This document shows positions 1,522 to 62,085 of a DNA stretch of 64,000 nucleotides, one piece after another; positions within the stretch are counted from its first letter, which is position 1, and every line of letters starts with the position of its first letter. The notes beneath the pieces are model-generated. The model was not told where the DNA came from and ran no database searches. It saw nothing but the letters and a program-made list of their open reading frames with translations. The position numbers were made by a program, and so were the translations under genes. Source of the DNA: a virus (taxonomy: Duplodnaviria; Heunggongvirae; Uroviricota; Caudoviricetes); IMG/VR virus record IMGVR_UViG_3300029305_003293, positions 54,161 through 118,160 of that record; one strand, 5' to 3'.

Positions 1522-1562
1522 CTTATACATATATTATAACAAAATTTTTATTGAATGTCAAT
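1522..1562 (-). promoter_or_regulatory. sigma70-type promoter (TTGACA-N17-TATAAT), repeated family
   Basis: Minus strand: TTGACATTCAATAAAAATTTTGTTATAATATATGTATAAG, upstream of the gene 1020-1496. Confidence 0.6.
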
Positions 1563-2027
1563 AATCCGTTGATTGCGGCTTCCACGCATTTTTAGGGTAA
1601 CATCTCTTTGCTCTTGAATGAAAGGACCATCAATTAAAGTATTAATATTTGCGAGAATATATTGCATATGAGAACTTTCTTGTTTAAGTAAATCTTCATA
1701 TAAGTATCCAGTCCAAATATAGATCTTTGTTTCAGGAGATTTTTCCTTGACCGTTCTAACCAAAAGAGTAGTTAAAAATAAATTTTCTGGACAAAGAGGT
1801 TCTCCACCCAAGATGCACAAGGAACGATTAATTCCTTGTGCATTGAGTTTTTCTATAATTTCTTCTAAAAGAGATGCTGGAAATTCTTTTCCGCCATTAA
1901 AATCCCAAGTTTCTGGATTATGGCATCCAGGGCAACGATGAGGGCAACCTTGAACATAAAATGAAACACACAAGCCATCTCCGGCCATTATATCGTTCCA
2001 TATTACATCAGCATATTGCATAATCAT
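1548..2027 (-). CDS. nrdG: anaerobic ribonucleotide reductase activating protein (radical SAM)
   Basis: CPHRCPGCHNPETW cysteine cluster. The gene is immediately downstream of nrdD. Confidence 0.85.
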   Translation of the reverse strand: MIMQYADVIWNDIMAGDGLCVSFYVQGCPHRCPGCHNPETWDFNGGKEFPASLLEEIIEKLNAQGINRSLCILGGEPLCPENLFLTTLLVRTVKEKSPETKIYIWTGYLYEDLLKQESSHMQYILANINTLIDGPFIQEQRDVTLKMRGSRNQRIIDIQ

Positions 2028-2032
2028 TCTCC

Positions 2033-4264
2033 TTAATATTTTGAATGTTTAACGCGCTCTATGGTTTCCGCTCTCTTGCCTTCATTAAATTTACGATAAT
2101 CAGTTGTTAAATAACCAGTTACGCGTCGTAGTTGTTCGATATTCCTAGAACCGCATTCAGGGCATTCGTCATTGAATTCACTTTGATACCCGCAATCGAG
2201 GCAGGTGTCGATCGGGAAGTTGAATGCAAGGTATGGGATATCGAGTTTCTGGAAGGCGTAATCAATGATTTGTTCGATTGCTTTTGTGTTCTGAACAAAA
2301 GTCGAATCCAATTCAACATAAGTAATGCAGCCTCCTGTTGGATATTTACAGAATGGAGCTTCAATTTCTAACTTTTCAAAAATACCAACTTTTTCCCAAA
2401 CTGGAACATGATGGCTATTAGTAATATAATCTCTATCTGTAATATTTGGTAAAATACCATGTTGTTTACGCAAGGCTTTAAGAGCAGTAGAGCACAATCC
2501 TTCTGCGGGCGTTGCATAACAAGAGAAGTTCAAATCATTGCGTTCACTTGCTTCTTTTGCATAAGCGTTGATACGCTGAACCACAGAAAGAGCAAAAGCA
2601 TGTGCTTTCTTACTATGAACATGATTTTCACCAAAAAGCGCTTGACACATTTCGGCCACACCGAGATATCCAATTGCTAAAGTATTATGACGGAGTGAAT
2701 TATAAACACTCTCAGCATATTTATCGGCATCGGCAATAGTACCATTCTGATACATAAAAGGTGCTGAAACTGCGGCTTGACAAATCATTGTGTCAAAGCG
2801 TTCAAGCAATCCTTGTTCGGCAAGCTTTAAGGTTGATTCGAATTCTTTCCAGAATCCTTCCAAATCAGGAACTTCTCTTTCCCCAAGACAGGTTCCATAC
2901 TTAATGCCGAGCTGTGGTAGAATAATGGTGACTGGGACATTGTTTCCACGGCCGACTCTTTGATAGCCCAATCCGTGTCTATCGAATCCAAGCATTGTGC
3001 GACATCCCATAGTGGAGAAGTAAGTATCTGGATTACTTGGGTCTTCGTGAGCTTGCGACCAGTCGCAGTTACAAAAATTGGGATAGATTCGTTTTGAGAG
3101 AGAAACTAAAGCATGTTGTTTGAGGTCATAGTTTCTATCTTCTGGATTAGCATTACATCCTTGTTTATATTGGAAAATTGAAATCGGGAAAATAGAAGTC
3201 TTATGATGCTTGCCGATTCCAGCCAAAGAAGCATTAAGCATTGCTTGAGATACCATACGACCTTCAATGGTTTCATCTCGCCCATAATTAATAGAAGTAA
3301 ATGGAACCTGAGAACCTGCTCTTGATTCAAGAGTATTTAAATTATGGTAAAGAGCTTCTGCTCCTTGTTTCAACTCTTTTTCAAGCATATAAATAGCATA
3401 ATCATATGCTCTACTATTTTTATGGAATCGTTTATCATCAATAGATGGCATTGTTTCAATTAAATTCTTTTCTAAATCTTCTGTTCCATAATGATTCCAA
3501 AGAGCATTATCAATTTCATCTTCTGTCATCCATAAAAGACCTTCGCAATAATGTTTATAAAAACTTCTTTTTACAAAAGGAGCTAAGTCGAAATCAATAT
3601 GGACTGTGCCAACGCCACCAAATTGAACTTGAGACTGGCATTGGAAAATAACTGCCATTTGCTGACAAGCAGTTGAGAAAGTAGAAGGTGGACGAATATC
3701 GCCATTACGAGTTGAAAATCCTTCTTTAAAAAGTTTCTCAAAATCAATATTTAAACAGTTGTGTTCACCAATAGGTGCTTTTTCAAGGTCGTGCTGATAA
3801 ATAAGCATACCTTTATGCGCATTAGCAACTTCTTCACTAAGAACATCTTCTAAGGCATAAATCTTTTGAATATCAGCAGATGCTTCTTTCTCTCGACCAG
3901 AGAAAGAGCGTTCATCTACATTAGCATTTTGATTTTGAACTGCAATAGCATCTAATCTGCGGCGCATCGCTTCCATAATGCGACTACGCTGTTCTCTAAT
4001 GCGAGAACGCCTATTTCTATATAAAATATATCTTTTTGCGGTAACTGGATCAACCGCCATTAATTCTTTTTCAACAAAATCTTGAATGCTTTCAACAGAC
4101 ATATCTTTATCTAATGCTCTAATCTTTTCAGCAATGTCTGTAGCATTCGGATGCAGAGGCTGAGTAGGACAATACTCTTCCTCCCAATAGGCTTTTGTAA
4201 TAGCCGTTTCAATCTTGGACTTGTCAAAAGGAACTTTGCGCCCGTCGCGCTTAATAATCATCAT
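2033..4264 (-). CDS. nrdD: anaerobic ribonucleoside-triphosphate reductase, class III
   Basis: 743-aa protein with a C-terminal glycyl-radical region (RVTGYLTTDYRKFNEGKRAE) and CxxC pairs. Confidence 0.9.
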   Translation of the reverse strand: MMIIKRDGRKVPFDKSKIETAITKAYWEEEYCPTQPLHPNATDIAEKIRALDKDMSVESIQDFVEKELMAVDPVTAKRYILYRNRRSRIREQRSRIMEAMRRRLDAIAVQNQNANVDERSFSGREKEASADIQKIYALEDVLSEEVANAHKGMLIYQHDLEKAPIGEHNCLNIDFEKLFKEGFSTRNGDIRPPSTFSTACQQMAVIFQCQSQVQFGGVGTVHIDFDLAPFVKRSFYKHYCEGLLWMTEDEIDNALWNHYGTEDLEKNLIETMPSIDDKRFHKNSRAYDYAIYMLEKELKQGAEALYHNLNTLESRAGSQVPFTSINYGRDETIEGRMVSQAMLNASLAGIGKHHKTSIFPISIFQYKQGCNANPEDRNYDLKQHALVSLSKRIYPNFCNCDWSQAHEDPSNPDTYFSTMGCRTMLGFDRHGLGYQRVGRGNNVPVTIILPQLGIKYGTCLGEREVPDLEGFWKEFESTLKLAEQGLLERFDTMICQAAVSAPFMYQNGTIADADKYAESVYNSLRHNTLAIGYLGVAEMCQALFGENHVHSKKAHAFALSVVQRINAYAKEASERNDLNFSCYATPAEGLCSTALKALRKQHGILPNITDRDYITNSHHVPVWEKVGIFEKLEIEAPFCKYPTGGCITYVELDSTFVQNTKAIEQIIDYAFQKLDIPYLAFNFPIDTCLDCGYQSEFNDECPECGSRNIEQLRRVTGYLTTDYRKFNEGKRAETIERVKHSKY

Positions 4265-4321
4265 ATTTAAAACCTCCTTTTAAGGGAACATCCAATATAC
4301 TTAACTACCAGTGGTATTCCC

Positions 4322-4897
4322 TTAATCGAGAACGGCCAAATTCTCTACAAATTCTTGTATATATCTTGTTGTATAATTTAAATCATCAAGATTATCATTA
4401 CTTACTTTTTTAAGATTTAAATAATCAATATCATCAAAATCTTCTAAATCTGCAAAATATCGACGGCAAATTTCCTTTACATCCGGATCGGTTTCTCTAG
4501 TTAATTGTCGCATCATTCGAATTTTATCATCAACATCAACATAAAAACCAATAACAGTTAATTCTGGATCAATTTTTGCACTTTCTAGAAAACAATCATA
4601 TCCCTCTGGATTAAAAACGCCAACATTGATACCTGGAAGAAGAGTTGTCTTATCGGTTCCATAATACCAATTATTAAAACAAACTGCTTCAAGCATATCA
4701 CCATTTAGAACTTTGGCGGCAAATTCTTCATTGGTAAGATAGTAATAATTTACACCTTCTTTTTCGCCCTCTCTCATAGGACGAGTAGTGCAAGAAACCA
4801 TCATATGCCATTCTGGATTGTTTCCTACCAATATTCGTGCTACTGTATCTTTTCCCGCTCCCGCTTTACCTAATAGAGCAATAATAATTTTCTGCAT
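4322..4897 (-). CDS. deoxynucleoside monophosphate kinase-like P-loop kinase
   Basis: Walker A GKAGAGKDTVA near the N-terminus; 191 aa. Confidence 0.55.
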   Translation of the reverse strand: MQKIIIALLGKAGAGKDTVARILVGNNPEWHMMVSCTTRPMREGEKEGVNYYYLTNEEFAAKVLNGDMLEAVCFNNWYYGTDKTTLLPGINVGVFNPEGYDCFLESAKIDPELTVIGFYVDVDDKIRMMRQLTRETDPDVKEICRRYFADLEDFDDIDYLNLKKVSNDNLDDLNYTTRYIQEFVENLAVLD

Positions 4898-4930
4898 ATA
4901 TTCTCCTAATAGGGGAGGTTTCCCTCCCCT

Positions 4931-8785: not shown

Positions 8786-8804
8786 AAAACTCCCTACATT
8801 TATT

Positions 8805-8845
8805 CTATATATACATTATATCATATTTTTTATTTATTGTCAACT
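8805..8845 (-). promoter_or_regulatory. sigma70-type promoter, repeated family
   Basis: Minus strand: TTGACAATAAATAAAAAATATGATATAATGTATATATAG, upstream of dnaE. Confidence 0.6.
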
Positions 8846-10130: not shown

Positions 10131-11290
10131 TTATGATAATTCCTCACTATAATAAGTTTTTTAGCGGCGCGAGTTGCCGCGGTATATAACCATCGAACAT
10201 GTTCTTCTTTGCTATCTCCTTTAAGATATTCTTCAAGAACTATTACTTTATCATATTCACTGCCTTGTGATTTATGACAAGTAATTGCATAAGCATAATC
10301 AAATTGATTCGGTTGGTAATATTTTGGAATACGCTTAAAATTATCTTTATTTATGGTAGGTTCATGCTCCATAAAAATCTTATAATCCATTTCCAACGCT
10401 AAAAAACTTTTCGCATTTTCATAATCCGGGGTGAAGTCGACAATAGGAGTAACCTCCATAAAAGGGTTGTCTTTAGTATATTTAATAGAATTAATTTTTC
10501 CGCTCAATCCATTTACAAGAGCATCGCCGGTTTCATTAATACATTCCCAATTATTTTTCAGACAAATAATTCGATCTCCTACCAAAGGATGCGGATCATC
10601 TGTATTCATTAAGACTTGTCTCATAAAAGAATTAATCGCGAAACGAGTATCATTTTTTCCAACTAAAATTTGATCTGCCCAAGCAAGGAATCCAGGTTGA
10701 AGCATTTCTTCTCTGTCTACAATCCGCACTTCATTTCCTCTCATTAATTGAAGAGGCTTCTGCGCACGGATATCCATAGTTAAACGAATAATTTCAGATT
10801 CTTCCTCTTGCCGCATAATTTCATCAAGAAAAATATGTGGATGATCTAATACCCCATGTGGTTCTGCCGCAACTGGAGGTAACTGTCCTGGATCTCCAAG
10901 TGCAAGAACATGAATTTTATGACTCAGAAGTAGTTCCCACATATGTTTCGGCAACATGGATACTTCATCAACTACAATAATTTTATAAGGAAACAATGGT
11001 CTAATTGGAATATGTTTAAAAGTTCCATCTTTTTTAGGAAAAGATTGATACAGTAGACGATGCGCAGTCATGGCATTAGGACATCCTTTTGTGCGAAGAA
11101 CCTGCGCCGCCTTACCAGTATATGCTATATATACAACTCTATCTTCTGGAATATTTAATGCACTAATAATAAATTGAACAAGTGTTGACTTACCTGTACC
11201 TGCTTTAAGCGTAGCCTGCGATACAAGTATAAGGTTCTTTATTCTTATATCGGGCTACTGCTGTTTTCAGACCATCTTCTTGATTTTTGG
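10127..11290 (-). CDS. RecD/Dda-like superfamily I DNA helicase with an apparent +1 frame discontinuity at about 11200
   Basis: The track ORF 10127-11071 carries VVDEVSM and the C-terminal motif TAATRAAKKLIIV. Upstream in the same frame: LKAGTGKSTLV...TAHRLL (Walker A). An N-terminal segment (ILTKNQEDGLKTAVARYKNKEPYTCIAGYA) lies in another frame behind an RBS (AAAAAGGAGG). Confidence 0.6.
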
Positions 11291-11321
11291 TTAAAATCAA
11301 TGTCCTACTTCCTCCTTTTTA

Positions 11322-11362
11322 TTAGATAATTTATTATATCATATATTTTCAAGAATGTCAAA
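11322..11362 (-). promoter_or_regulatory. sigma70-type promoter, repeated family
   Basis: Minus strand: TTGACATTCTTGAAAATATATGATATAATAAATTATC, upstream of the RecD-like helicase. Confidence 0.6.
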
Positions 11363-16545: not shown

Positions 16546-16571
16546 TTAATACATCCTTTTATAGTATCTAT

Positions 16572-16611
16572 TTCTATAAATATTATACCATAATTTTTTA
16601 AAAAAATCAAG
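16572..16611 (-). promoter_or_regulatory. sigma70-type promoter, repeated family
   Basis: Minus strand: TTGATTTTTTTAAAAAATTATGGTATAATATTTATAGA, directly after a terminator. Confidence 0.55.
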
Positions 16612-16640
16612 CCCATATTACTATGAGCTTGATTATTATA
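16604..16640 (-). terminator. rho-independent terminator
   Basis: Minus strand: hairpin AATCAAGC-loop-GCTTGATT followed by TTTTTTT; downstream of the Sak4-like gene. Confidence 0.55.
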
Positions 16641-18999: not shown

Positions 19000-19042
19000 A
19001 CCTTATACATATATTATATCAAATTTTTTCAATTTTGTCAAA
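19000..19042 (-). promoter_or_regulatory. sigma70-type promoter, repeated family
   Basis: Minus strand: TTGACAAAATTGAAAAAATTTGATATAATATATGTATAAGGT. Confidence 0.6.
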
Positions 19043-21840: not shown

Positions 21841-21960
21841 AATAAGTAATCTCCTTTTTCTCGCGTTATACGCATTTTTTTATTTTAATTATTCTATAAT
21901 AATCTGAGGATTTTTCTCAGTTATTAACTAAAGTTATTTTACCAAAAATTTTTAAGTTTT

Positions 21961-22164
21961 TCAACTATCTAACTGTTTGGTAATCAGTTCACGAATCATT
22001 TCATCCAGTTCAATCATCTCATTAAGTTCTAGATCGGCAGATTGAGTAAGTTTCATCATTTTTTCTTTTGCACTATCTACCTTATCTACAGATTCATTTT
22101 TCTGAATGATAATTTCAAGGTCTGCGAACTCTTTAGCAAGCTTTTTAAGTTGCTTTTTCGTCAT
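21961..22164 (-). CDS. hypothetical protein
   Basis: 67-aa charged helical ORF. Confidence 0.3.
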   Translation of the reverse strand: MTKKQLKKLAKEFADLEIIIQKNESVDKVDSAKEKMMKLTQSADLELNEMIELDEMIRELITKQLDS

Positions 22165-22184
22165 AGGATTTTTATTTCCCTCAC

Positions 22185-22225
22185 CTTATGCATATATTAT
22201 ATCAAAAAATTTTTTAAAAGTCAAA
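22185..22225 (-). promoter_or_regulatory. sigma70-type promoter, repeated family
   Basis: Minus strand: TTGACTTTTAAAAAATTTTTTGATATAATATATGCATAAGGT. Confidence 0.6.
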
Positions 22226-27105: not shown

Positions 27106-27676
27106 TAATTAACTCCATAATCATATTAATAGTAGTTTTAGTATCAAATTTCTTCATAGAATAATTAAGTAGAATTTCACTTAACTTTATATATATTATA
27201 TCATTTTTTTTATCCTTTGTCAAGTGCTCAGTTTCATCAGGATAAGCCTTTCCTGTAGCGAGAGCGTCTGCTCTTTCATTATAAAGATGTCCACAATGAG
27301 CCTTAACTTTTTCAAAATTAATTCTGGGATCTTTAAACATCTTTACTAAATAGCGCCATTCTAAAAGATTAGCAACAGTTTCTCCTTTAGAATTTTTCCA
27401 TCCATTATTTTCCCAATTTATATACCATTTATCTTTGTAGCAATTTGTAAGATAAGCACTATCAGAATAAATAGTAATATCATGGTCTTTAAAGTATTCG
27501 CTATTAATAGCCCAGTCACAGGCTTCCATCGCCGCAATAAGTTCCATTAACTGGTTCGTATCGCCGACCTGCTCCTTGCCTGCTTTTTCATATACTTTTG
27601 TTCCATCAATAACTGCGACAAAGCCCCAGCCAGAGCGATTTTTCATTGCGCTGCCATCGGTATAAATCTCAATCAT
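27098..27676 (-). CDS. rnh: ribonuclease H (RNase HI)
   Basis: IEIYTDGS...SDS...KAHCGH conserved RNase H residues. Confidence 0.8.
   Translation of the reverse strand: MIEIYTDGSAMKNRSGWGFVAVIDGTKVYEKAGKEQVGDTNQLMELIAAMEACDWAINSEYFKDHDITIYSDSAYLTNCYKDKWYINWENNGWKNSKGETVANLLEWRYLVKMFKDPRINFEKVKAHCGHLYNERADALATGKAYPDETEHLTKDKKNDIIYIKLSEILLNYSMKKFDTKTTINMIMELINE
27185..27224 (-). promoter_or_regulatory. sigma70-type promoter, repeated family
   Basis: Minus strand: TTGACAAAGGATAAAAAAAAATGATATAATATATATAAAG. Confidence 0.55.
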
Positions 27677-29798: not shown

Positions 29799-29817
29799 AT
29801 TTTTCTCCTTTCATTTA

Positions 29818-29858
29818 TCTTTACATATATTATATCATAATTTTTAATTTTTTTCAAG
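29818..29858 (-). promoter_or_regulatory. sigma70-type promoter, repeated family
   Basis: Minus strand: TTGAAAAAAATTAAAAATTATGATATAATATATGTAAAG. Confidence 0.6.
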
Positions 29859-30293: not shown

Positions 30294-30866
30294 TTAGGTT
30301 TCTGTTTTTCCATCTGGTGAGTCCTTCTTTCGCATGGCTCTCACCTGATTATAAAATTCATCTTTTTGTTCAATCATTTCGCGCATATCTTTTTTAGTTA
30401 CGCGAATAAGTTGTTTAGTATCACCAATATCGCGCTCCAAAAGTTTCATTTGACGACGAATGGTATAACATTCAACTGAATCATAATGCACTCTTGGATT
30501 TTGTTCAAGAATATTGTAAAGGTGTTTTAGAGCCTTTAATTCGGCAACAAGGGCATCTCTATTTTCACAAAGTTCTTGAATCATTGATCTAGTATAGGCA
30601 TAATGTTCTCCTACAAGTTTAGACTCAAATTCCCAGTCATTGGGATGACAACGAGCTTCACCAATATAAGATCTATTATGACTTCTTCTTTTACAAACTG
30701 TTGTATGAGTTTCTGGATTATAAGAAAATTTCGTTTTTGAATCATTAATCATTTCTTGAGTTGCTCCTTTTGCTTTTCTATATAAATTATAGCAAAAATT
30801 TTTGGACATGTCAAATTGACCCATTTTGAGAAAAAATTTTCCATGGGCGTAAAAAACCTGAACCAC
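30294..30866 (-). CDS. hypothetical protein
   Basis: 190-aa ORF. Confidence 0.3.
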   Translation of the reverse strand: MVQVFYAHGKFFLKMGQFDMSKNFCYNLYRKAKGATQEMINDSKTKFSYNPETHTTVCKRRSHNRSYIGEARCHPNDWEFESKLVGEHYAYTRSMIQELCENRDALVAELKALKHLYNILEQNPRVHYDSVECYTIRRQMKLLERDIGDTKQLIRVTKKDMREMIEQKDEFYNQVRAMRKKDSPDGKTET

Positions 30867-34579: not shown

Positions 34580-34624
34580 AACCTTACATATATATTATAT
34601 AATATTTTTTCTAATTTTTCAATT
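34580..34624 (-). promoter_or_regulatory. sigma70-type promoter, repeated family
   Basis: Minus strand: TTGAAAAATTAGAAAAAATATTATATAATATATATGTAAGGT. Confidence 0.6.
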
Positions 34625-35417
34625 AGAAGGTTGGAAGTTCTTGATTGGGAGTAAATGCAATTATATCATTTGTTTCCAAATCCAGCAAACAAATAGTATC
34701 TGTTCTAAAAGCGCAAGTATCCATATCAATCTTGTTAGGCTGATATTTCATAGGTTTCCATACTCTTGGCACTTCTTCTTCAATACAATCATAAACATAT
34801 TTTACAGGAGTATGACCGTGGATAAGAACGCGCCCTTCAATCCACTTTTCTTCAAAATGATTTCGATCCCAGAGCATATCTCGACCAGAACCCCAGTTTT
34901 CTCGCGAACAACCTGCATGACAAAAATCGTATTTTCCCATTTGAAGATTAATAGGAAGTTTAGCGATTTTACTTACAATATCAACAGGGGCACCGTCAGC
35001 AATCCAAGCTTCAATAGTAGGAACACCACCATTGCTCATATGAAGTTGAGTATCATATTCTCCGGACCACATCATATCAGCAATAGTATTAAATTGATTG
35101 GCATATTCACGAACAGTAAGACCGTCATTTGCTGCGGCGTTCTTGATCTCAAAACAAGACCGTACAAACAGATCTTCGTGATTACCCATAAGATAAATCA
35201 CATTAGGCATAGAAAGCATTTCTTTCATAATTTTATATCCATCGGGACCGCGATCACAAGCATCGCCCAGGAAGATAAGAGTTGTTTCCTCTTGTTCGAG
35301 TTCTTGTTTAACTTGCTCCCAAAGACCACCCATTCCGTGGATATCAGACATTACCAAATATCTCATATTTATCACACCTTTCATATATATTATATCAAAA
35401 ATTATAAAAAAAATCAA
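34623..35417 (-). CDS. Ser/Thr phosphatase-like metallophosphoesterase
   Basis: MSDIHGM...GDACDRGPDG...GNHED motifs. Confidence 0.65.
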   Translation of the reverse strand: MIFFIIFDIIYMKGVINMRYLVMSDIHGMGGLWEQVKQELEQEETTLIFLGDACDRGPDGYKIMKEMLSMPNVIYLMGNHEDLFVRSCFEIKNAAANDGLTVREYANQFNTIADMMWSGEYDTQLHMSNGGVPTIEAWIADGAPVDIVSKIAKLPINLQMGKYDFCHAGCSRENWGSGRDMLWDRNHFEEKWIEGRVLIHGHTPVKYVYDCIEEEVPRVWKPMKYQPNKIDMDTCAFRTDTICLLDLETNDIIAFTPNQELPTF

Positions 35418-35418
35418 A
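35378..35418 (-). promoter_or_regulatory. sigma70-type promoter, repeated family
   Basis: Minus strand: TTGATTTTTTTTATAATTTTTGATATAATATATATGAAAGG, directly after a terminator. Confidence 0.55.
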
Positions 35419-35445
35419 CGAGAGCTTAATGGCTCTCGTTTAGCT
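35413..35445 (-). terminator. rho-independent terminator
   Basis: Minus strand: AAACGAGAGCC-ATTAAG-CTCTCGTTT followed by GATTTTTTTT. Confidence 0.6.
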
Positions 35446-38067: not shown

Positions 38068-38112
38068 TTTATCTTACATACATTATACAATATTTTTTAG
38101 TATTTTTCAAAT
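38068..38112 (-). promoter_or_regulatory. sigma70-type promoter, repeated family
   Basis: Minus strand: TTGAAAAATACTAAAAAATATTGTATAATGTATGTAAGAT. Confidence 0.55.
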
Positions 38113-40002: not shown

Positions 40003-40050
40003 CTTAACCTTACATATATATTATATAATATTTTTTATAAAAAATCAAAG
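40003..40050 (-). promoter_or_regulatory. sigma70-type promoter, repeated family
   Basis: Minus strand: TTGATTTTTTATAAAAAATATTATATAATATATATGTAAGGT. Confidence 0.6.
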
Positions 40051-40138
40051 GGTAGATGACATCATCAAGACTCATCCACCCCAAATTCTAGAAAAACAAC
40101 TACTACAAATACTATCCATAAAAGTATGACAAACTAAA

Positions 40139-42124: not shown

Positions 42125-42170
42125 TTTATTTTACATATATATTATATCAAAAATATAAAAAAAAATCAAG
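42125..42170 (-). promoter_or_regulatory. sigma70-type promoter, repeated family
   Basis: Minus strand: TTGATTTTTTTTTATATTTTTGATATAATATATATGTAAA, directly after a terminator. Confidence 0.55.
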
Positions 42171-42196
42171 GAGAAGATTATTCCTTCTCCTTTTTA
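42166..42196 (-). terminator. rho-independent terminator
   Basis: Minus strand: GGAGAAGG-AATAATC-TTCTCC followed by TTGATTTTTTTTT. Confidence 0.5.
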
Positions 42197-43961: not shown

Positions 43962-44008
43962 CTTTACCTTACTTATATATTATAACAAAAATTTTTGAAT
44001 TTTTCAAA
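43962..44008 (-). promoter_or_regulatory. sigma70-type promoter, repeated family
   Basis: Minus strand: TTGAAAAATTCAAAAATTTTTGTTATAATATATAAGTAAGGT. Confidence 0.6.
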
Positions 44009-45139: not shown

Positions 45140-45190
45140 CATTTCTTATTATATATATATTATAACAAAAATATAAAAAAAAAATCAAGG
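45140..45190 (-). promoter_or_regulatory. sigma70-type promoter, repeated family
   Basis: Minus strand: TTGATTTTTTTTTTATATTTTTGTTATAATATATATATAATAAG, directly after a terminator. Confidence 0.5.
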
Positions 45191-45215
45191 TGAGATTTTT
45201 TAATCTCACCTTATA
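45183..45215 (-). terminator. rho-independent terminator
   Basis: Minus strand: AAGGTGAGATT-AAAAAA-TCTCACCTT followed by GATTTTTTTTTT; directly after the TAA of the fibre-like gene. Confidence 0.6.
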
Positions 45216-54738: not shown

Positions 54739-54847
54739 ATAAAATATCCCACCTTTATTTAAATTTTATATATAAAATATAAAATACCAGTCTATATTAT
54801 ATATAAAATTTAAACTAATATTTTAATATAATTTGCCCTTATTTAAC

Positions 54848-54890
54848 TCTTTAATTAAATTATATCATATTTTTTTTCTAAAGTCAAATG
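54848..54890 (-). promoter_or_regulatory. sigma70-type promoter upstream of the precursor-like/radical SAM gene cluster
   Basis: Minus strand: TTGACTTTAGAAAAAAAATATGATATAATTTAATTAAAG (TTGACT-N17-TATAAT). It lacks the ATATATGTAAGG extension of the other copies. Confidence 0.55.
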
Positions 54891-54987
54891 AATTTTTCTA
54901 AACCCATTTTTGAATTGACCGTGCCCGCGCCGAGCAACCAAATATTTCCTTTATACCAATATCATAGCATAATTTTTCTAGAAAGTC

Positions 54988-55025
54988 AAAAAAGGTGGGT
55001 TCATCACATTCATGATGAACCCACC
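54988..55025 (-). terminator. rho-independent terminator at the downstream end of the tRNA array
   Basis: Minus strand: GGTGGGTTCATCA-TGAATG-TGATGAACCCACC (13-bp stem) followed by TTTTTT; just after tRNA-Val. Confidence 0.6.
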
Positions 55026-55065
55026 TTAAAGGCCAAGAGCTTCGTAAGTTTTCTGGGCACTGAAC

Positions 55066-55589: not shown

Positions 55590-55661
55590 GACCGGAAAGG
55601 AGACTCGAACTCCTGAGTTCCACCTTGAGGGTAGCGTTCTAACCATCTGAACTATTCTGGT
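55590..55661 (-). pseudogene. atypical tRNA-like element (irregular anticodon arm, no CCA)
   Basis: Acceptor ACCAGAA/UUCCGGU with an A-C mismatch, D-arm GUUC...GAAC and T-arm AGGAG-UUCGAGU-CUCCU. The anticodon arm has either a 5-nt loop or the loop CCUCAAG (UCA or CAA). Confidence 0.35.
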
Positions 55662-57289: not shown

Positions 57290-57291
57290 AT

Positions 57292-57411: not shown

Positions 57412-57458
57412 TGGTGCCGAGAGTGGGACTTGAACCCACACATCTTTTGGATACTTGA
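57412..57458 (-). other. 3' half of a split type-II Leu-like tRNA (UCAAG stem strand, variable arm, T-arm, UCUCGGC acceptor strand, A, CCA)
   Basis: UCAAG-UAUCCAAAAGAUG-UGUGGG-UUCAAGU-CCCAC-UCUCGGC-A-CCA. It pairs with the 5' half at 58094-58125, located 660 nt away. Confidence 0.5.
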
Positions 57459-57459
57459 T

Positions 57460-58081: not shown

Positions 58082-58093
58082 ATACTCGTCTTT

Positions 58094-58125: not shown

Positions 58126-58190
58126 AAACTGTATGGGTTTTAAGAGTCCATACCCTCTTTGTAGCTCACTTTCGTGAGTGCCACCTTGCC

Positions 58191-58232
58191 TGGTCGGAGA
58201 GACAGGATTCGAACCTGCGGCCTCTTGATCCA
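58191..58232 (-). other. isolated tRNA 3' fragment (T-arm GCAGG-UUCGAAU-CCUGU, acceptor strand CUCUCCG, A, CCA)
   Basis: No matching 5' half (CGGAGAG) was found nearby. The fragment abuts the 3' end of the CDS 58247-58684. Confidence 0.4.
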
Positions 58233-58246
58233 GTTAATAATGCTCC

Positions 58247-58684: not shown

Positions 58685-58777
58685 ATCAAGCTGTCTACCA
58701 AACTGACATACTCCCCGATGATCAAGACGATTTTATCTGTACTACCATACATCTTTTTATTGCTGGTATCGTCTTTA

Positions 58778-58824
58778 TCAACCTTACATATTTATTATAT
58801 CATAATTTTTTTAATTTTTCAACT
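58778..58824 (-). promoter_or_regulatory. sigma70-type promoter, repeated family
   Basis: Minus strand: TTGAAAAATTAAAAAAATTATGATATAATAAATATGTAAGGT. Confidence 0.6.
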
Positions 58825-59236
58825 CTTCCATAATCTTAAGCTCGATAGGTTTCTTCTCTGTCTGAGAATTAGAACATATCATAAGAGCTTCCGCGATTGC
58901 CAGATAATCTCTGTCAACGAGTTGCATATCCGCAATCATATCTTCAATAATTACTCGATCTTCCATATGCTCAGCATATTTTTTCTTGAACTCAGTAACA
59001 TAATCATTTGCCTCATCATAAGTCTTATAATAAGAATGATGATCGTAGAGCATTCGATCAGTTCTTTCTTTACAATGAATACAAACAAAAGGTTCAAAAA
59101 TCTTGAATACAAGATATCGAGTATTTGTATTATATGATGCTTCATAATACCAAGGAAAGTCTTTATACTTATGATTACAGACCAGCTTCTGCGGTTTTGA
59201 TTCTTCGACTTTTGCCTTTCGCTTAAACCAGCCCAT
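58811..59236 (-). CDS. hypothetical protein
   Basis: 141-aa ORF downstream of the promoter at 58778-58824. Confidence 0.3.
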   Translation of the reverse strand: MGWFKRKAKVEESKPQKLVCNHKYKDFPWYYEASYNTNTRYLVFKIFEPFVCIHCKERTDRMLYDHHSYYKTYDEANDYVTEFKKKYAEHMEDRVIIEDMIADMQLVDRDYLAIAEALMICSNSQTEKKPIELKIMEELKN

Positions 59237-59263
59237 AATTACTCTCCTTTTAATTTAACTTAA

Positions 59264-59340
59264 TGGAGTGTCCTGCCGGATTTGAACCAGCGCATCACGG
59301 GGTTGCAACCCGCCGCCTTACCAGACTTGGCTAAGGACAC
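59264..59340 (-). tRNA. tRNA-Cys (anticodon GCA)
   Basis: GUGUCCU...AGGACAC U CCA; loop UUGCAAC; T-loop GGTTCAAATCC. Confidence 0.8.
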
Positions 59341-59429
59341 ATAAAACAAGACTTCCTGATTCACAGTAGTTTTCTTCATCAAAACTTAAATATCATATGT
59401 GTATATTTGCTGAAAGAAACCTTTAAAAA

Positions 59430-59504
59430 TGGTGGATCTGAGGGGAATCGAACCCCTAATTCCTGCTTGCAAGGCAGGTGTGTTACCATTAGCACTACAA
59501 ACCC
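59430..59504 (-). tRNA. tRNA-Ala (anticodon UGC)
   Basis: G3-U70 identity pair in GGGUUUG/CAGAUCC; loop CUUGCAA; T-loop GGGTTCGATTCCC; CCA encoded. Confidence 0.8.
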
Positions 59505-59728
59505 GCATTAGTGCCTGCGGATACAGGCAAAGAAAATTACCGAAAACAGTCGCCTAGGACTTTCACCCTATCTCCAGCCTCTTTCATCTGGTGTTCTCAT
59601 TCGTGCTTTCGCACCTTTTAAACTATCCGCACCTATCACGATTACCCAATCAACATTTCTGTCCTTGTGCCGGGCCAGCTGGCGTGCGTCTATTAAGCGT
59701 AGCTATTATTCCAAGCCTATCGGTAATA

Positions 59729-59804
59729 TGGCCTCCCACAAAGGATTCGAACCCTCATTGCTTGATCCGTAGTCAAGTGTCCTGTCCAATTAGACGAATG
59801 GGAG
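59729..59804 (-). tRNA. tRNA-Arg (anticodon ACG)
   Basis: CUCCCAU...GUGGGAG G CCA; loop CUACGGA; T-loop GGTTCGAATCC. Confidence 0.75.
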
Positions 59805-59807
59805 AGA

Positions 59808-59884
59808 TGGGTGCCAAGGCTGGATTCGAACCAGCGATCTCCAACTTATGAGGATGGCGAGATGACCTGCTTCTCTACTCGGCA
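59808..59884 (-). tRNA. tRNA-Met/Ile2-like (anticodon CAU)
   Basis: UGCCGAG...CUUGGCA C CCA; loop CUCAUAA; T-arm GCUGG-UUCGAAU-CCAGC. Confidence 0.7.
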
Positions 59885-60170
59885 GCGCGTGCGTTCCTTT
59901 TGAGCGAACTACACATACTCTCTTTAATAACTCGTACTCTCGCCAAGTTTTAGCGGTTGCTAAATCTTTAACTCATTATAATTATCATCCTATTATAAGT
60001 TGCCACTACTCTTTAATTGATTAATTATAATTTATATGAGTGGACTTTTGTATATTAATTAGAGCGGACGATAATTCGCAACACGCATACCCCGGACTTG
60101 AGACCCGGCGGTGGTGGGTTATACAAGGGTCGGTATTTCCGTTAGGCTGGCCCCGACCGCAGGCTCTGTA

Positions 60171-60488
60171 TCAAGATTGAGCATAACCATAATGGGTAAG
60201 AAGTTGTTCCATATTCTGCCTACCGACCGGATTCATAGTATGCAGATGGAAGCCGAGTAAGGGGTAATTAGATGAAACAATGAACTTACAAATATCATAA
60301 CCGGTCTTTTCTTCACCCAGATCATGGTCTAAGTCGATGTATACTTCGCATACATCTCGGCATTGCTCGAGAAACTCAATGGTTGCCTGATAGGACCTTG
60401 TAGTGTGAGTGCCAGCGCCCTCACAGAAAGGAATGTTCTCAAAGGGATTCTTTCGTTCATCGTCTACCCAGAGGAAAACTTTTGTCAT
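60171..60488 (-). CDS. hypothetical protein
   Basis: 105-aa ORF downstream of the promoter at 60505-60553. Confidence 0.3.
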   Translation of the reverse strand: MTKVFLWVDDERKNPFENIPFCEGAGTHTTRSYQATIEFLEQCRDVCEVYIDLDHDLGEEKTGYDICKFIVSSNYPLLGFHLHTMNPVGRQNMEQLLTHYGYAQS

Positions 60489-60504
60489 TTGCTTGAACCC
60501 CTTT

Positions 60505-60553
60505 CCTTTACCTTACATATATATTATATAATAATTTTTATAATTTTTCAAAT
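60505..60553 (-). promoter_or_regulatory. sigma70-type promoter, repeated family
   Basis: Minus strand: TTGAAAAATTATAAAAATTATTATATAATATATATGTAAGGT. Confidence 0.6.
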
Positions 60554-60566
60554 CAGCGATTTGAAT

Positions 60567-60644
60567 TGGTGGGTTCGGTTGGTGTCGAGCCAACACTCTG
60601 CGGTTTTTCAGACCGCCGCATAAGACCGCTTGTGCTACGAACCC
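60567..60644 (-). tRNA. tRNA-Phe (anticodon GAA), atypical T-loop CUCGACA
   Basis: GGGUUCG...CGAACCC A CCA; anticodon stem GCGGU/ACCGC with loop CUGAAAA. Confidence 0.6.
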
Positions 60645-60650
60645 ATAAAT

Positions 60651-60724
60651 TGGAGCAAGTAGCGGGAATCGAACCCGCGACCTCAGCATGGCAAGCTGAT
60701 GTTTTACCTCTAAACTATACCTGC
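60651..60724 (-). tRNA. tRNA-Gly (anticodon GCC)
   Basis: GCAGGUA...UACUUGC U CCA; loop UUGCCAU; T-loop GGGTTCGATTCCC. Confidence 0.8.
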
Positions 60725-60725
60725 A

Positions 60726-61004
60726 TCACTTATCTTCATCATCATACCTACTACCATCTTCGCAATATTTACACTCCACAGTAGAAGGATCGACATCGCC
60801 ATATAATTCAATATACCAATCACGATAATGTTTCCAAATATAACCGGGGTCACTGATACAATCAGCATATCCAAATTTACAGCACATTGGATAATCAATG
60901 AAGTAGTCTTTAATATAAACATTTTTAGGATTATGCTTACAGACACCACATACTTCATCACTTTTGTTTGGATTAAAACAATTTTCACAATAGTTATATT
61001 TCAT
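60726..61004 (-). CDS. Cys-rich small protein
   Basis: MKYNYCENCFNPNKSDEVCGVCKHNP...MCCKFGYADC. The longer N-terminal part of the track ORF overlaps tRNA-Gly and is rejected. Confidence 0.3.
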   Translation of the reverse strand: MKYNYCENCFNPNKSDEVCGVCKHNPKNVYIKDYFIDYPMCCKFGYADCISDPGYIWKHYRDWYIELYGDVDPSTVECKYCEDGSRYDDEDK

Positions 61005-61078
61005 ATCATAAATCCGGCTATCACGGGGCGCCCTATGGTGGACACGCTTGAATTTCACATACCAATTAAACTTTAAAA

Positions 61079-61152
61079 TGGAGCACCATATGGGACTCGA
61101 ACCCACTACATCTGCTTGGAAGGCAGAGATGTTACCATTACACCAATGGTGC
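61079..61152 (-). tRNA. tRNA-Gly (anticodon UCC)
   Basis: GCACCAU...AUGGUGC U CCA; stem UCUGC/GCAGA with loop CUUCCAA; T-loop GGGTTCGAGTCCC. Confidence 0.8.
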
Positions 61153-61161
61153 ATCCGGGAA

Positions 61162-61866
61162 TTAACCCCACTGTTCTGCCATTGCTTTCGCAATTCCAGG
61201 AAAAGTTTTACTGCGAGCTTTCGCAGTTCGTGGATCACTCCATCTGATCGTCTTACCATTTTCATCATAAGCCGTATCAATAGAAGCATTTACTGAACGA
61301 CCATTTCCTGCAAGAGGGCCGCAATCAACAATTTCAGTTAGAACAAGAGGTTGAACTCCCTTCTCCCAAAGACAAGTTTTCTTGCGTGCTCTTTCGCCAA
61401 ACTCATATGGTTGAATCATTTGCGCTGGCTTTTGCGGCAGACCATATCGTTCTGCCAAATCAGGAAAATGTTCTTTCAGATAAGAACCGCTGATAATACA
61501 TACGGGATTTTCTACAACAACTTTATCGCAATCTGCCTCAAGAAATTGACAGAAAAATTCTATCGCTTCTCTTTGGCGTCCATCCGCACGCTTTGCTGCG
61601 AAATGTCTTGCGCCACTCACAGCTAAATGAGTGCAAGGTGGATGCGCAATAATCATATCCCAACGATCTTCGATCTTATGCTCTTGACCGTCCATTGTAA
61701 TAAAAGTGGTTTTACCATTTAATAGGGGTAGGACATCACCAAGAATGTGCCATTCTGGATGACCGCCACTACATTCCTAAATATCACAGGAGAAAGCTCG
61801 ATGTCCTTTTGCGCGAAACGCCTTACAGACTTCTTGACTTTCTTCACAAGCAATTAAAACATTCAT
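61162..61866 (-). CDS. DNA cytosine-5-methyltransferase-like protein with an in-frame TAG (61777-61779)
   Basis: RBS AGGAG plus ATG: MNVLIACEESQ...FSCDI-TAG-ECSGGHPEW... joined to the track ORF carrying AHPPCTHLAVSG (PC motif) and VVVENPV (ENV-like). Confidence 0.4.
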
Positions 61867-61943
61867 AAACAAGACTCCTTACGATAAAACTAATATGCAG
61901 CAGTTATTTGTAAAAAAGATTGCTGAAAGAGTCTTTATCCCTG

Positions 61944-62036
61944 TGGCAGCCCCTCTGGGACTCGAACCCAGACTACCTCCTTCAGAGGGATATCACGGTT
62001 TTAGAGACCGGTGTTCTGCCATTGAACTAAGGGGCA
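61944..62036 (-). tRNA. amber suppressor tRNA (anticodon CUA, reads UAG), long-variable-arm type
   Basis: Acceptor UGCCCCU/AGGGGCU, discriminator G, CCA encoded. D-arm GUUC-AAUGGCA-GAAC. Anticodon stem CCGGU/ACCGU with loop CUCUAAA (U33, CUA, A37). 23-nt variable arm. T-arm CUGGG-UUCGAGU-CCCAG. U1, G73 and the CCGGU stem resemble tRNA-Gln. Confidence 0.75.
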
Positions 62037-62039
62037 TCG

Positions 62040-62085
62040 CAACCTTATATAAATATTATATCAAAAAATTTTGAAAAAGTCAATT
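62040..62085 (-). promoter_or_regulatory. sigma70-type promoter, repeated family
   Basis: Minus strand: TTGACTTTTTCAAAATTTTTTGATATAATATTTATATAAGGT, upstream of the suppressor tRNA. Confidence 0.6.

Follow-up and report, generated by a model that had tools for sequence, protein, structure and literature searches.

The window analysed here, a 64,000-nucleotide stretch from the 173-kb genome of a large gut phage that is uncultivated and translates TAG as a sense codon, contains about 22 copies of a bacterial promoter close to perfect, each with a short standard leader, located before early genes and tRNAs. From their sequence features, we consider it probable that these copies are promoters for the host RNA polymerase with its primary sigma factor (sigma-A/sigma-70 type), serving early and middle replication and nucleotide-metabolism genes and the tRNA genes, and that the AT discriminator and the initially transcribed sequence (ITS) would aid melting and escape. 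MAG binning, Shine-Dalgarno usage and distant protein relatives suggest a gut bacterium of the Clostridia as the probable host. This promoter-leader family is real but ordinary, because coliphage T5 has long been known to carry the same arrangement, with near-perfect promoters before its early genes.

Anatomy, placement and strand bias of the module

The sequence-only reading had counted at least 19 copies on the minus strand and had proposed a motif search with strand-bias statistics as a check. The pattern TTGA(C/A/T)(A/T)-N17-TATAAT yielded exactly 19 matches, 19/19 on the minus strand, while dinucleotide shuffles gave a chance expectation of 0.47 matches (maximum 3) for TTGAHW-N17-TATAAT, so that the exact pattern is approximately 40-fold above chance and on one strand only. 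The outermost exact -35 hexamers begin at 62083 and 1561, in agreement with the span of 1522 to 62085 given earlier. Three variants, at 54989 (TATGAT -10), 45188 (18-nt spacer) and 21964 (TAAAAT -10), bring the family to 22, or about one copy per 2.8 kb. With a 42-nt weight matrix covering -35 to +7, the gap between copies and background was clean: 20 minus-strand hits, including variant 54989, scored at least 28.6 bits, two intermediate scores (15.3 and 14.5) were provisionally assigned to copies 45188 and 21964, all others reached at most 3.2 bits, and the plus-strand maximum was 4.6 bits. In an unbiased direct-repeat search the module made up the highest-ranking families (D1-D5, D8 and D9), and the remaining large direct-repeat families were tRNA-related.

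As had been claimed for their placement before minus-strand genes, all copies lie at gene 5′ ends and are co-oriented with the genes. They are listed below together with one terminator-like hairpin, and each copy is named in the text by its higher coordinate.

62042-62083, minus strand: copy TTGACT-17-TATAAT ATTTAT A TAAGGT, with orthologues in L197 and L198; directly drives an amber-suppressor tRNA(CTA) that begins 18 nt past the -10
60510-60551, minus strand: copy carrying the 18-mer extension unchanged; 34 nt from the -10 to the start codon of a cREC_REC-domain gene (60488-60171)
58781-58822, minus strand: copy AAATAT G TAAGGT; long structured leader, then the 5′ half of a split tRNA-Pro(UGG)
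54948-54989, minus strand: variant copy (TATGAT -10) that opens a tandem pair; hairpin 54992-55027 immediately precedes it
54846-54887, minus strand: extension-free copy (TTAATTAAAGAGT); about 120 nt of leader separate it from a TAG-recoded RiPP-like/radical SAM cluster
45146-45188, minus strand: variant copy with an 18-nt spacer; its -35 (TTGATT and T-run) is the tail of terminator hairpin 45186-45213
43966-44007, minus strand: copy ATATAA G TAAGGT; leader with hairpin GCCCCTTGTCCCAAGGGGC, upstream of a DUF2828/DUF7788 gene
42128-42169, minus strand: copy whose -35 overlaps the tail of terminator hairpin 42168-42192
40007-40048, minus strand: copy with the exact 18-mer extension; hairpin at about 40049-40082 adjoins the -35; family D5
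38069-38110, minus strand: copy whose extension is displaced by 2 nt (GTATGTAAGAT), upstream of an RNA ligase gene
35415-35442, minus strand: intrinsic-terminator-like hairpin whose T-tail (TTGATTTTTTTT) supplies the following promoter with its -35 and proximal spacer
35376-35417, minus strand: copy whose -35 overlaps that hairpin tail, upstream of a metallophosphatase-like gene (by eye)
34581-34622, minus strand: copy with the exact 18-mer extension, the same as copy 40048 from spacer to +24; family D5
30773-30814, minus strand: perfect TTGACA-17-TATAAT copy with an AGAAAAG-type, phAss-1-like transcribed start
29816-29857, minus strand: copy upstream of gyrB
27182-27223, minus strand: copy within the 3′ end of ORF 27676-27098 (RNase H-like by eye), upstream of gyrA
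22183-22224, minus strand: copy ATATGC A TAAGGT, downstream of a DNA ligase gene
21923-21964, minus strand: weak variant with a TAAAAT -10 and without the extension, upstream of a 90-aa protein (21840-21568)
19000-19041, minus strand: copy ATATGT A TAAGGT, upstream of a weak winged-HTH/MarR-like protein (18959-18594)
16569-16610, minus strand: copy whose -35 lies within the 3′ arm and tail of a hairpin at about 16605-16634
11320-11361, minus strand: copy without the extension, upstream of a RecD/Pif1-like helicase
8802-8843, minus strand: copy upstream of a DNA polymerase III alpha gene
1520-1561, minus strand: copy overlapping the 3′ end of an NrdG-like gene

The module combines a TTGAnn -35 and a TATAAT -10 with a 17-nt all-A/T spacer that has an A-tract at -23 to -19 and TRTG at -17 to -14 (the Gram-positive TRTG or extended -10 motif), TG being present at -15/-14 in 18/22 copies. 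A 6-nt, AT-only discriminator follows, with T at -1 and a purine at +1, the latter found 7 nt past the -10 in 21/22 copies. The ITS is C-free and purine-rich, reads R-TAAGGT-(A/T)RAGRRAG and runs into the Shine-Dalgarno sequence, with the start codon about 30 nt past the -10 (at 22-36 nt in 14/22 copies).

The earlier description of the module as nearly invariant holds for the hexamers and the 17-nt spacing but not for the downstream extension, which had been attributed to each copy: the 18-mer TATAATATATATGTAAGG is exact in three copies and has at most two mismatches in nine. TAAGGT occupies +2 to +7 in 9/22 copies, about eight have looser purine-rich variants, and the extension is unrecognisable in three or four; over the 20 positions of discriminator and ITS, window copies differ on average at 9.5. 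One copy lacking the extension is 54887, before the radical SAM cluster, as that reading had remarked. Given that three or four copies do without it, the extension is not essential for promoter activity, and given that it is also kept where a tRNA comes next, it is more than a ribosome-binding site.

Conservation and distribution in other phages

In relatives 83-99% identical to this phage, orthologous copies kept 47/48 positions of the -35, 48/48 of the -10 and 99/104 of the discriminator and ITS, a count that leaves out the mis-registered 45188 pair, while their 60-nt flanks matched at only 79% and 85% in an ungapped comparison, with homology breakpoints. Spacer bases drift among these close relatives, and the hexamers stay fixed. 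Relatives also have six further copies in 5.7 kb of tiny ORFs and tRNAs past the right end of the window, and zero copies were found in the 8 kb past its left end, where gene orientation flips.

The same module is present in hundreds of phage contigs from gut and rumen. Among 188 distinct sites elsewhere that were picked solely by the 19-mer of -10 and ITS, TTG stands exactly 17 nt upstream in 89%, and these sites also carry T-17, T-15 and G-14. Among 436 sites picked by the -35 to -10 region alone, a purine occupies position 7 in 98% and T occupies position 6 in 89%, with C nearly absent over 20 nt. In the complete genome of phAss-1, all 25 copies lie on the minus strand, and 22 of these fall within the replication and tRNA block at 55-130 kb; the plus strand, where the TAG-recoded structural genes are located, has none. 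This distribution, like that past the two window ends, speaks for an early temporal class. The culturable Enterococcus phage EF1 has the module as well. Over the 17 spacer positions, mean pairwise differences were 2.4 within phAss-1 vs 8.4-9.4 between genomes, and these genome-specific spacer signatures are unexplained by optimisation for a shared polymerase.

Comparison with T5 and proposed roles of the extension

Annotated T5 early promoters, including PN25, match the downstream half of the module, with a downstream consensus of ATATTT-ATAAATTGATGAGA in T5 and ATATAT-GTAAGGTAAAGAAA in this phage. The column correlation between T5 and the window module was 0.72 in register and 0.20-0.55 when shifted, the PN25 ITS (ATAAATTTGAGAGAGGAG) ranked in the top 0.04-0.13% of window positions, and a promoter of the T5-like phage S114, annotated as putative, scored 21.9 bits with a matrix built from this window's copies only, the window's own copies scoring 24.7 to 35.8. 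Primer-extension products were found for 11/19 T5 promoters tested. Early and late T5 promoters differ chiefly in the discriminator, all early ones carrying ATATT (PMC7472727), and escape and productive yield at the N25 promoter are governed by the ITS (PMC12464699, PMC5961368). The T5 match, together with hexamers, 17-nt spacing, TRTG, T at -1, purine at +1, bias in both strand and position, conservation and confinement to the non-structural strand in phAss-1, supports the earlier suggestion of a single dominant class that would be read by the host primary sigma factor.

If the copies are such host promoters, the near-consensus core may hold the polymerase firmly enough for output to be limited by promoter escape, and the AT discriminator and purine-rich ITS would be retained since both could speed DNA melting and escape. 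The role in escape is proposed because it is documented for the T5 PN25 ITS, and we infer by analogy that it may carry over from E. coli and T5 work to a Gram-positive polymerase. Where a ribosome-binding site lies close by, the unstructured polypurine leader may serve to load ribosomes and keep the RNA 5′ end covered; elsewhere that protection may come from a small 5′ hairpin formed by TAAGGT. Pairing of the 5′ end was modestly enriched in leaders without an early ribosome-binding site (44% vs 31% shuffled) and showed no excess in leaders with one (20% vs 21%).

This restricted enrichment would also fit a mainly RNA-level function of the extension, a possibility to which we give limited credence, in which the transcript 5′ end (R-UAAGGU, or AGAAAG with polypurine) is a stabiliser or translation enhancer that protects early transcripts from 5′-end-dependent decay, either by pairing with the 16S rRNA 3′ end like STAB-SD or through a 5′-terminal hairpin. 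By sequence inspection, AAGG and AGAAAG, both common variants, are sub-strings of AGAAAGGAGG, the Firmicute anti-Shine-Dalgarno complement, and GTAAGGT...ACCTTAC occurs in many instances. STAB-SD, ribosome blocking of RNase J1 and the polypurine 5′ stabiliser reportedly described by Hue, Cohen and Bechhofer in 1995 are precedents, and all three are cited in the review PMC3997798. However, 5′ ends are paired in only 25% of all instances vs 16% shuffled, and the hairpin is therefore not a general rule; the block is also retained upstream of tRNA genes, where processing cuts the leader off, and recurs in T5-like coliphages, whose hosts are not known to have RNase J1. An RNA-level function is in any case compatible with the host-promoter explanation and not exclusive of it.

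It seems unlikely that the discriminator and ITS (ATATAT-RTAAGGT), perhaps with the spacer, are instead an early-class label on a host promoter, through which a phage polymerase- or DNA-binding factor turns the class off or down at late onset. For such a phage-specific determinant, which the earlier reading had considered possible, T5 offers a precedent in its ATATT discriminator and gpT5.026, an RNA polymerase-binding protein that weakens polymerase contact at -5/+2 and alters the balance of early and late transcripts (PMC7472727). The module-free structural-gene strand of phAss-1 and the differing spacer signatures are consistent with such a label, as are the weak winged-HTH protein directly after copy 19041 and the 90-aa protein after copy 21964, which is winged-helix-like by eye and without Pfam support. 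However, the scanned ORFs included no recognisable sigma factor or polymerase-binding protein, and spacers drift between close relatives despite fixed hexamers. Moreover, phages with unrelated hosts (Streptococcus, Enterococcus, Clostridia-associated contigs and T5-like coliphages) share this discriminator and ITS, a pattern that points to bacterial RNA polymerase itself and away from a private factor.

Terminator-like hairpins, possible mobility and proposed transcription units

In line with the earlier observation that copies often directly follow a terminator, 7/22 adjoin a GC hairpin with a T-run leading into the -35. The arrangement at 35415-35442, in which the terminator tail doubles as the -35, is likewise found at 45186-45213 and 42168-42192. 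Intrinsic-terminator-like hairpins were twice as frequent as in shuffled sequence in the 17 kb scanned.

These adjoining stem-loops recall the PeSL (promoter-early stem-loop) elements of T4-type phages, the model for a quite unlikely scenario in which the copies are mobile or recombinogenic regulatory cassettes, spread by copy-and-paste or gene conversion and serving as crossover sites at which gene cassettes are exchanged. Identity between some copies extends well past the polymerase contacts (34622 vs 40048 over about 43 nt), family D5 shows 73-78% identity over 80 nt, and similarity is higher within than between genomes. Homology breaks between close relatives adjoin modules, upstream of 60551 and 54989 and downstream of 58822, and the entire cargo block 54818-48113 has been exchanged directly after the tandem promoters. 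However, promoter-adjacent breakpoints are expected regardless, because intergenic DNA tolerates junctions, and endonuclease-gene insertions account for some breaks. No target-site duplications, transposase or integrase were found, nor any copy in a non-promoter orientation or position, and mobility would account for spread and not function, presupposing a working promoter. It is highly improbable that the repeat is a signal for packaging or replication, or some other DNA-level element, that only looks like a sigma-70 promoter in AT-rich DNA: loose promoter-like matches are indeed common in this genome of about 35% GC (67 vs 60 expected in 17 kb), but the exact pattern is far above chance on a single strand, lies at fixed distances from start codons and tRNA 5′ ends, is spread unclustered every 3 kb or so, has a purine at the predicted +1 and shares its architecture with the annotated T5 early promoters, of which 11 of the 19 tested gave primer-extension products, and an Rfam scan of the window matched no family except tRNA.

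For the host-promoter reading, the partition into short transcription units that had been proposed from the sequence is plausible, with 22 promoters in about 60 kb and an excess of terminator-like hairpins. The repeated cassettes plausibly split this region of the phage genome into units of about 3 kb.

A minus-strand family of probable promoters and leaders

The pattern TTGA(C/A/T)(A/T)-N17-TATAAT has 19 exact matches in the window, all on the minus strand, with -35 hexamers (by whose start we name the copies) running from 62083 to 1561, in agreement with the count, strand, and span of the sequence-only reading; dinucleotide-preserving shuffles gave a mean of 0.47 matches and never more than three. 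A 42-nt weight matrix trained on the copies placed 20 minus-strand sites at or above 28.6 bits, followed by two scores of 15.3 and 14.5 bits, with all remaining scores at or below 3.2 bits and a best plus-strand score of 4.6 bits. The two intermediate scores are taken to be two of three variant copies:

54989, minus strand: copy with a TATGAT -10, among the 20 matrix sites
45188, minus strand: copy with an 18-nt spacer (intermediate score)
21964, minus strand: copy with a TAAAAT -10 (intermediate score)

Primary-sigma hexamers 17 ± 1 nt apart were thus found in 19 exact and three variant copies, for a family total of 22, or about one per 2.8 kb. All 22 lie on the coding strand at the 5' ends of genes or tRNAs, and that strand also carries every ORF of any size and each of the 23 tRNA genes in the window. 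When direct repeats were searched without a prior motif, the module made up the largest families (D1-D5, D8, and D9), and the other large families were only tRNA-related.

A typical copy has a 17-nt spacer almost only of A and T, which is T-rich beside the -35 and has a central A-tract; 18 of the 22 copies carry TG at -15/-14. TATAAT is followed by six A/T bases (ATATAT or ATATGT) and then, in 21 of 22 copies, by a purine, which by sequence would be a start point 7 ± 1 nt past the -10 after a pyrimidine. The purine leads into TAAGGT or a purine-rich variant, then a polypurine stretch of the type (A/T)AAG(A/G)AAGGGG that includes the Shine-Dalgarno, and then the start codon, which in 14 copies lies 22-36 nt past the -10. 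The module had been called nearly invariant, and this holds for TTGAHW-N17-TATAAT, exact in 19 copies, but not for the conserved extension after the -10 (discriminator and initially transcribed sequence, ITS): the 18-mer TATAATATATATGTAAGG is exact in only three copies and within two mismatches in nine, TAAGGT stands at +2..+7 in nine, and over the 20 positions made up of the discriminator and the initial 14 transcribed bases, copies differ at 9.5 on average. Three or four copies have no recognisable extension (54887, 21964, 11361, and partly 54989), among them, as had been pointed out, the copy in front of the radical SAM cluster (54887), which has a leader of about 120 nt.

A GC-rich hairpin abuts seven of the 22 copies (54989, 45188, 42169, 40048, 35417, and 16610; less closely 29857), and terminator-like sites numbered 23 against 11.5 expected in the 17 kb scanned. 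In TTGATT-type copies, the T-run of the would-be terminator U-tract also supplies the following promoter with its -35 hexamer and the adjoining part of its spacer. As a general rule, such a TTGATT-linked fusion of terminator and promoter was rejected, since sites outside the window showed only a trend, with a strong abutting hairpin at 24-28% of TTGATT/TTGACT sites versus 8-15% of TTGACA/TTGAAA sites.

Genes under the probable promoters and TAG recoding

The window encodes DNA polymerase III alpha, NrdD, an NrdG-like protein, gyrase A and B, DnaB-like and RecJ-like proteins, DNA and RNA ligases, and PhoH, as well as a tRNA array and a ClpP-like protease (by eye and from relatives' gene tables). 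It makes up the arm of a large phage devoted to replication and nucleotide metabolism, and was taken from a metagenome contig of 173,261 bp. By polymerase, the closest annotated relatives share only about 38% identity (phAss-1, a complete TAG-recoding phage genome; Enterococcus phages EF1/H1/VRE9; and SPbeta), and Megablast of 15 kb against the phage collection returned no close cultured relative. The host of this TAG-recoding uncultivated phage is probably a member of the Clostridia. Of the ORFs scanned, none was recognised as encoding a sigma factor or a polymerase-binding protein. No module copy was present in the 8 kb past the left end of the window, in which the genes switch strand. Suppressor-type tRNAs are encoded at two places:

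61944-62036: amber-suppressor-type tRNA (CTA), 93 nt, directly under promoter copy 62083
55590-55661: opal-suppressor-type tRNA (anticodon TCA)

Copy 62083 carries the extension, with the CTA tRNA beginning 18 nt after the -10, and copy 58822 leads to tRNA-Pro. AAGG or AGAAAG occupies +2..+7 also where a tRNA gene follows, so that the extension is more than a ribosome-binding site.

TAG is read as sense in a subset of genes, among others 54136-52796, 52824-51436, 50009-49110, 49054-48110, 47468-46641, and 21502-20528, while most replication genes have no TAG; full-length domain matches of the GT2, PhoH, GIY-YIG, and radical SAM-like ORFs were obtained only with TAG read-through. A RiPP-like cargo block of 26% GC (54738-51436, continuing to 48110) encodes two small proteins of 109 and 94 aa that are rich in Cys, Ser, Gly, and Asn, a pair of radical SAM-like enzymes (CxxxCxxC), and a GT2 glycosyltransferase, with many in-frame TAGs and no internal promoter copies. 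The first radical SAM-like enzyme had weak Pfam matches (Fer4_12, 29.2 bits; Radical_SAM, 24.6 bits, below cut-off) and the second had no Pfam match. In relatives 90-95% identical elsewhere, 54818-48113 is exchanged for different genes, and is therefore a hypervariable cassette just after tandem promoters.

The tRNA-Pro(UGG) gene (58716-58191) is split in its anticodon loop by an insert (58680-58232) and is intact in the relative L197 (11465-11541); the 450-bp insert encodes a PD-(D/E)XK (PDDEXK_5) endonuclease (ORF 58642-58247), and the relative L198 has three PDDEXK_5 genes in its tRNA region. The non-coding part of this insert, about 55 nt, is too short to hold a group I ribozyme, and Rfam reported no intron. 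A tRNA 3' fragment with T-arm, acceptor strand, and CCA (57412-57459) directly follows an HNH-like ORF (57930-57460; 156 aa, one TAG); its 5' half was not found, and neither ARAGORN nor Rfam calls a tRNA there. A RecD/Pif1-like helicase lies in two frames (about 11330-10127, shift near 11237): its N-terminal 31 codons run from a TTG start 32 nt past promoter 11361 to GCT-TAA, and the Walker A continues in the +1 frame (GCT T AAA GCA GGT ACA GGT AAG). Once joined, the helicase aligns to the PIF1 model from residue 3 onward and to AAA_19/AAA_30 from residues 20-24. Gene calling on the metagenome likewise put the start downstream, and the frame break reflects either programmed +1 frameshifting at a stop codon or an error of assembly. 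Finally, the first genes behind two of the promoter copies encode small proteins that are candidate DNA-binding regulators: 18959-18594 (winged-helix/MarR-like, with weak Pfam and PHROG support) and 21840-21568 (winged-helix-like by eye only).

Distribution in other phages and comparison with T5

IMG/VR contigs, many of them 100-400 kb long, contain the exact 19-mer TATAATATATATGTAAGGT in at least 117 stretches, and contigs of genomes or MAGs contain it in 72. The latter belong mostly to Clostridia bins from gut and rumen, and some of them, 150 kb long and with three or four matches, look like binned phages. At 188 distinct outside sites picked only by the -10 and ITS 19-mer, TTG stood exactly 17 nt upstream in 89%, with T-17 in 78%, T-15 in 86%, and G-14 in 62%, and R-16 too. 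From 1.4 Mb of loci, 436 non-redundant sites were selected by the -35 to -10 region only, and their downstream logo read ATATAT-R-(T/G)AA-RR-T-AAAGAAAG, with C nearly absent for 20 nt; it also held for the 318 of 436 sites other than the exact 19-mer. Positions 1-6 past the -10 read ATATAT and are virtually G/C-free, with T at position 6 in 89% of the 436 sites and the purine at position 7 in 98%.

Close relatives, 83-99% identical, keep copies at orthologous sites, with six extra copies in 5.7 kb of tiny ORFs and tRNAs past the right end. Across orthologous copies, 47 of 48 positions were conserved in the -35, 48 of 48 in the -10, and 99 of 104 in the discriminator and ITS, figures that leave out the 45188 pair, mis-registered by its 18-nt spacer; the 60-nt flanks, compared ungapped and with abrupt homology breaks included, matched at 79% and 85%. 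Locus L199, examined for a lack of the module near terminase genes, runs past its shared 5 kb into an unrelated, GC-richer tRNA array, is possibly a chimeric assembly, and carries no information on this point.

phAss-1, as well as EF1 and its relatives, all distant by DNA polymerase III alpha, share this layout of the cassette, which points the same way as their genes for nucleotide metabolism and tRNAs; each genome has a dialect of spacer and ITS of its own (TAATTATAAAGTTAAATAAGGAGG in EF1, ATATATAGAAAATGAGAAAGGGG in phAss-1). phAss-1, which has 44.5% GC and recodes TAG, is described in a paper in which the word "promoter" is absent (PMC10607447). Its genome carries 25 copies of TTGACA-TAAAAAAATTTTTATGG-TATAAT-ATATATAGAAAATGAGAAAGGGG, all on the minus strand and 22 of them in the 55-130 kb replication/tRNA block, and no copy on the plus strand, which holds the structural genes; a search of the structural block for a distinct late-promoter motif (TGnTAnAAT on the plus strand) yielded nothing convincing. 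EF1 has 14 copies of its own dialect in a 40-kb piece.

Among cultured phages, blastn of the consensus matched T5-like Salmonella and E. coli phages, Enterococcus phages EF1/H1/VRE9, Lactococcus phages 949/phiL47, and Listeria, Staphylococcus, and Streptococcus phages. The match in Salmonella phage S114 is annotated "putative promoter" and scored 21.9 bits on the window-only matrix, on which the window copies themselves score 24.7-35.8 bits. A form with a palindromic spacer and the same -10/ITS 19-mer, TTGACT-ACTACTATAAATAGTAG-TATAAT, occurs in the Streptococcus equinus NM-7 chromosome (L167) and in IMG/VR viral loci L029, L064, L073, L077, L080, and L102, and may represent a promoter whose spacer contains an operator.

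A close parallel is given by the early promoters of coliphage T5 (NC_005859), such as PN25 (N25), P25, P26, P28, and P207; about 29 promoters are annotated in its first 50 kb, mostly on the strand of early and tRNA genes. The window likewise has many predicted strong sigma-70-type promoters on one strand. Several T5 promoters overlap annotated rho-independent terminators, much as hairpins abut copies here. The discriminator is AT-only in both (ATATT in T5, ATATAT in the window), and both have a purine +1 and an ITS of the form R-TAAAT/TAAGG-TTGA-GAGAGG running into the Shine-Dalgarno. Aligned on the -10, the downstream consensus reads ATATTT-ATAAATTGATGAGA in T5 and ATATAT-GTAAGGTAAAGAAA here, and the column frequencies correlate at 0.72 in register versus 0.20-0.55 when shifted by 1-3 nt; the T5-type conserved initially transcribed region (ATAAATTGA...GAGAGG) is found in register with the -10. 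PN25 reads ...TTGCTT-TCAGGAAAATTTTTCTG-TATAAT-AGATTC-ATAAATTTGAGAGAGGAG, its ITS scores 8.5 bits, within the top 0.04-0.13% of window positions, and a spacer of the AAAATTTTT-TG type occurs in both PN25 and phAss-1.

The upstream halves differ: the T5 -35 is TTGCTW with a more GC-containing spacer, whereas that of the window is TTGA(C/A/T)(A/T), and most T5 promoters scored low on the window -35 to -10 matrix because of these two features, so that the likeness lies in the -10 and downstream half. Neither TTGCTW nor an A-rich block near -43 characterises the module, in which A-enrichment at -46..-43 is only about 50%; we therefore claim likeness for the architecture and downstream half, not strict family membership. 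The two phages also differ in host phylum, with the TRTG and stronger Shine-Dalgarno here being Firmicute-like, and the phage of the window has TAG recoding and a DNA polymerase that does not make it a relative of T5.

Interpretation and significance

Alongside the directly observed grammar, placement, strand bias, and conservation of the copies, their distribution in other phages, and the T5 parallel, we consider it likely that they are host primary-sigma promoters of early/middle genes and tRNAs, built as promoter-leader cassettes. That they are a primary-sigma promoter family had been proposed earlier, and is supported by hexamers, spacing, TG, predicted purine +1, and placement. The TTGACA-17-TATAAT layout with T-17, R-16, T-15, and G-14 is common to Gram-positive sigma-A promoters and the module sites, which also share a weak A-rich region near -46..-43; a "-16 region" (TRTG), or extended -10, in Gram-positive sigma-A promoters was reportedly described by Voskuil and Chambliss in 1998. 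Ordinary host promoters are not known to have one set discriminator, ITS, and leader in common at dozens of sites. A near-consensus core would need an easily melting discriminator and an ITS that favours escape, and a C-free polypurine leader would stay unstructured and put a strong Shine-Dalgarno no more than about 20 nt from the 5' end. For N25, promoter escape is the limiting step, and both the rate of escape and the productive fraction are set by the ITS (PMC12464699).

It is possible, although we give it limited credence, that the extension is mainly an RNA-level stabiliser, for which precedents appear among the references of PMC3997798, namely the STAB-SD and a polypurine stabiliser of 5' mRNA ends in Bacillus; like these, the predicted transcripts have a Shine-Dalgarno-like polypurine at the extreme 5' end. 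Unlike these, the element, known here from sequence, lies within the first 7 nt and is kept before tRNA genes too. Given that 5'-end protection was predicted, pairing was compared in leaders with and without an early ribosome-binding site: the 5' end was paired in 44% of leaders without one versus 31% of shuffled sequences, often as AAGGT...ACCTT, and in 20% versus 21% of leaders with one, without excess. A universal 5'-terminal GTAAGGT hairpin was rejected, as the first 8 nt were paired in only 25% versus 16% of shuffled sequences.

We regard it as unlikely that the discriminator and ITS form a class label read by a phage factor, an idea that draws on the genome-specific spacer dialects and on T5, in which ATATT in the discriminator of all known early promoters is the main difference from late ones and the polymerase-binding protein gpT5.026 weakens contacts with the discriminator region (PMC7472727). 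The copies also resemble the promoter-early stem-loop (PeSL) cassettes that Arbiol, Comeau and Krisch reportedly described in T4-type phages in 2010, with a repeated early promoter and adjacent stem-loop flanking small or variable genes, and homology breaks between relatives near modules. Recombinogenic cassettes of this kind appear quite unlikely here. Some copies are identical over 43-80 nt, and breakpoints adjoin modules in three of eight orthologous comparisons, all of them of modules; a stem-loop accompanies only seven of the 22 copies, and most copies precede large core replication genes. A wider reading would be a long shot, namely that discriminator, ITS, and A-tract spacer go beyond an optimum for promoter strength and are an "early-class" code. 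Many unrelated virulent phages, as different as T5-like coliphages and large TAG-recoding phages of Clostridia, would have this code in common, and RNA polymerase modifiers encoded by the phages would read it; if true, given the amber-suppressor tRNA directly under such a promoter, a single switch would set the timing of early shut-off and also of the start of the TAG read-through that late genes need. A repeat that is not a promoter is extremely improbable. Rfam matches in the window are tRNAs only, which speaks against a known RNA family or repeat element. A literature search with the sequence TATGTAAGGT matched only unrelated eukaryotic papers.

The probable host primary-sigma cassettes are of an already known kind, a T5-style strong early promoter family with conserved discriminator and leader, and leave the current understanding of phage transcription unchanged. 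Their added value is modest: the cassette is common among large phages of the gut and rumen, and its matrices mark predicted early transcription units cleanly. True copies stand more than 10 bits clear of background on the 29-nt and 42-nt matrices. These could therefore be applied to hundreds of large gut and rumen phage contigs that lack annotation, among them stop-codon-recoded contigs on which gene callers fail, to mark early/middle transcription units and with them the early/late boundary. The cassettes are also predicted to be ready-made strong promoter-leader parts for Firmicutes. Finally, the promoter grammar runs through the spacer, the discriminator, and about 20 transcribed bases, and its recurrence in phages of distant hosts supports the proposal that the ITS should count as part of the promoter (PMC5961368).
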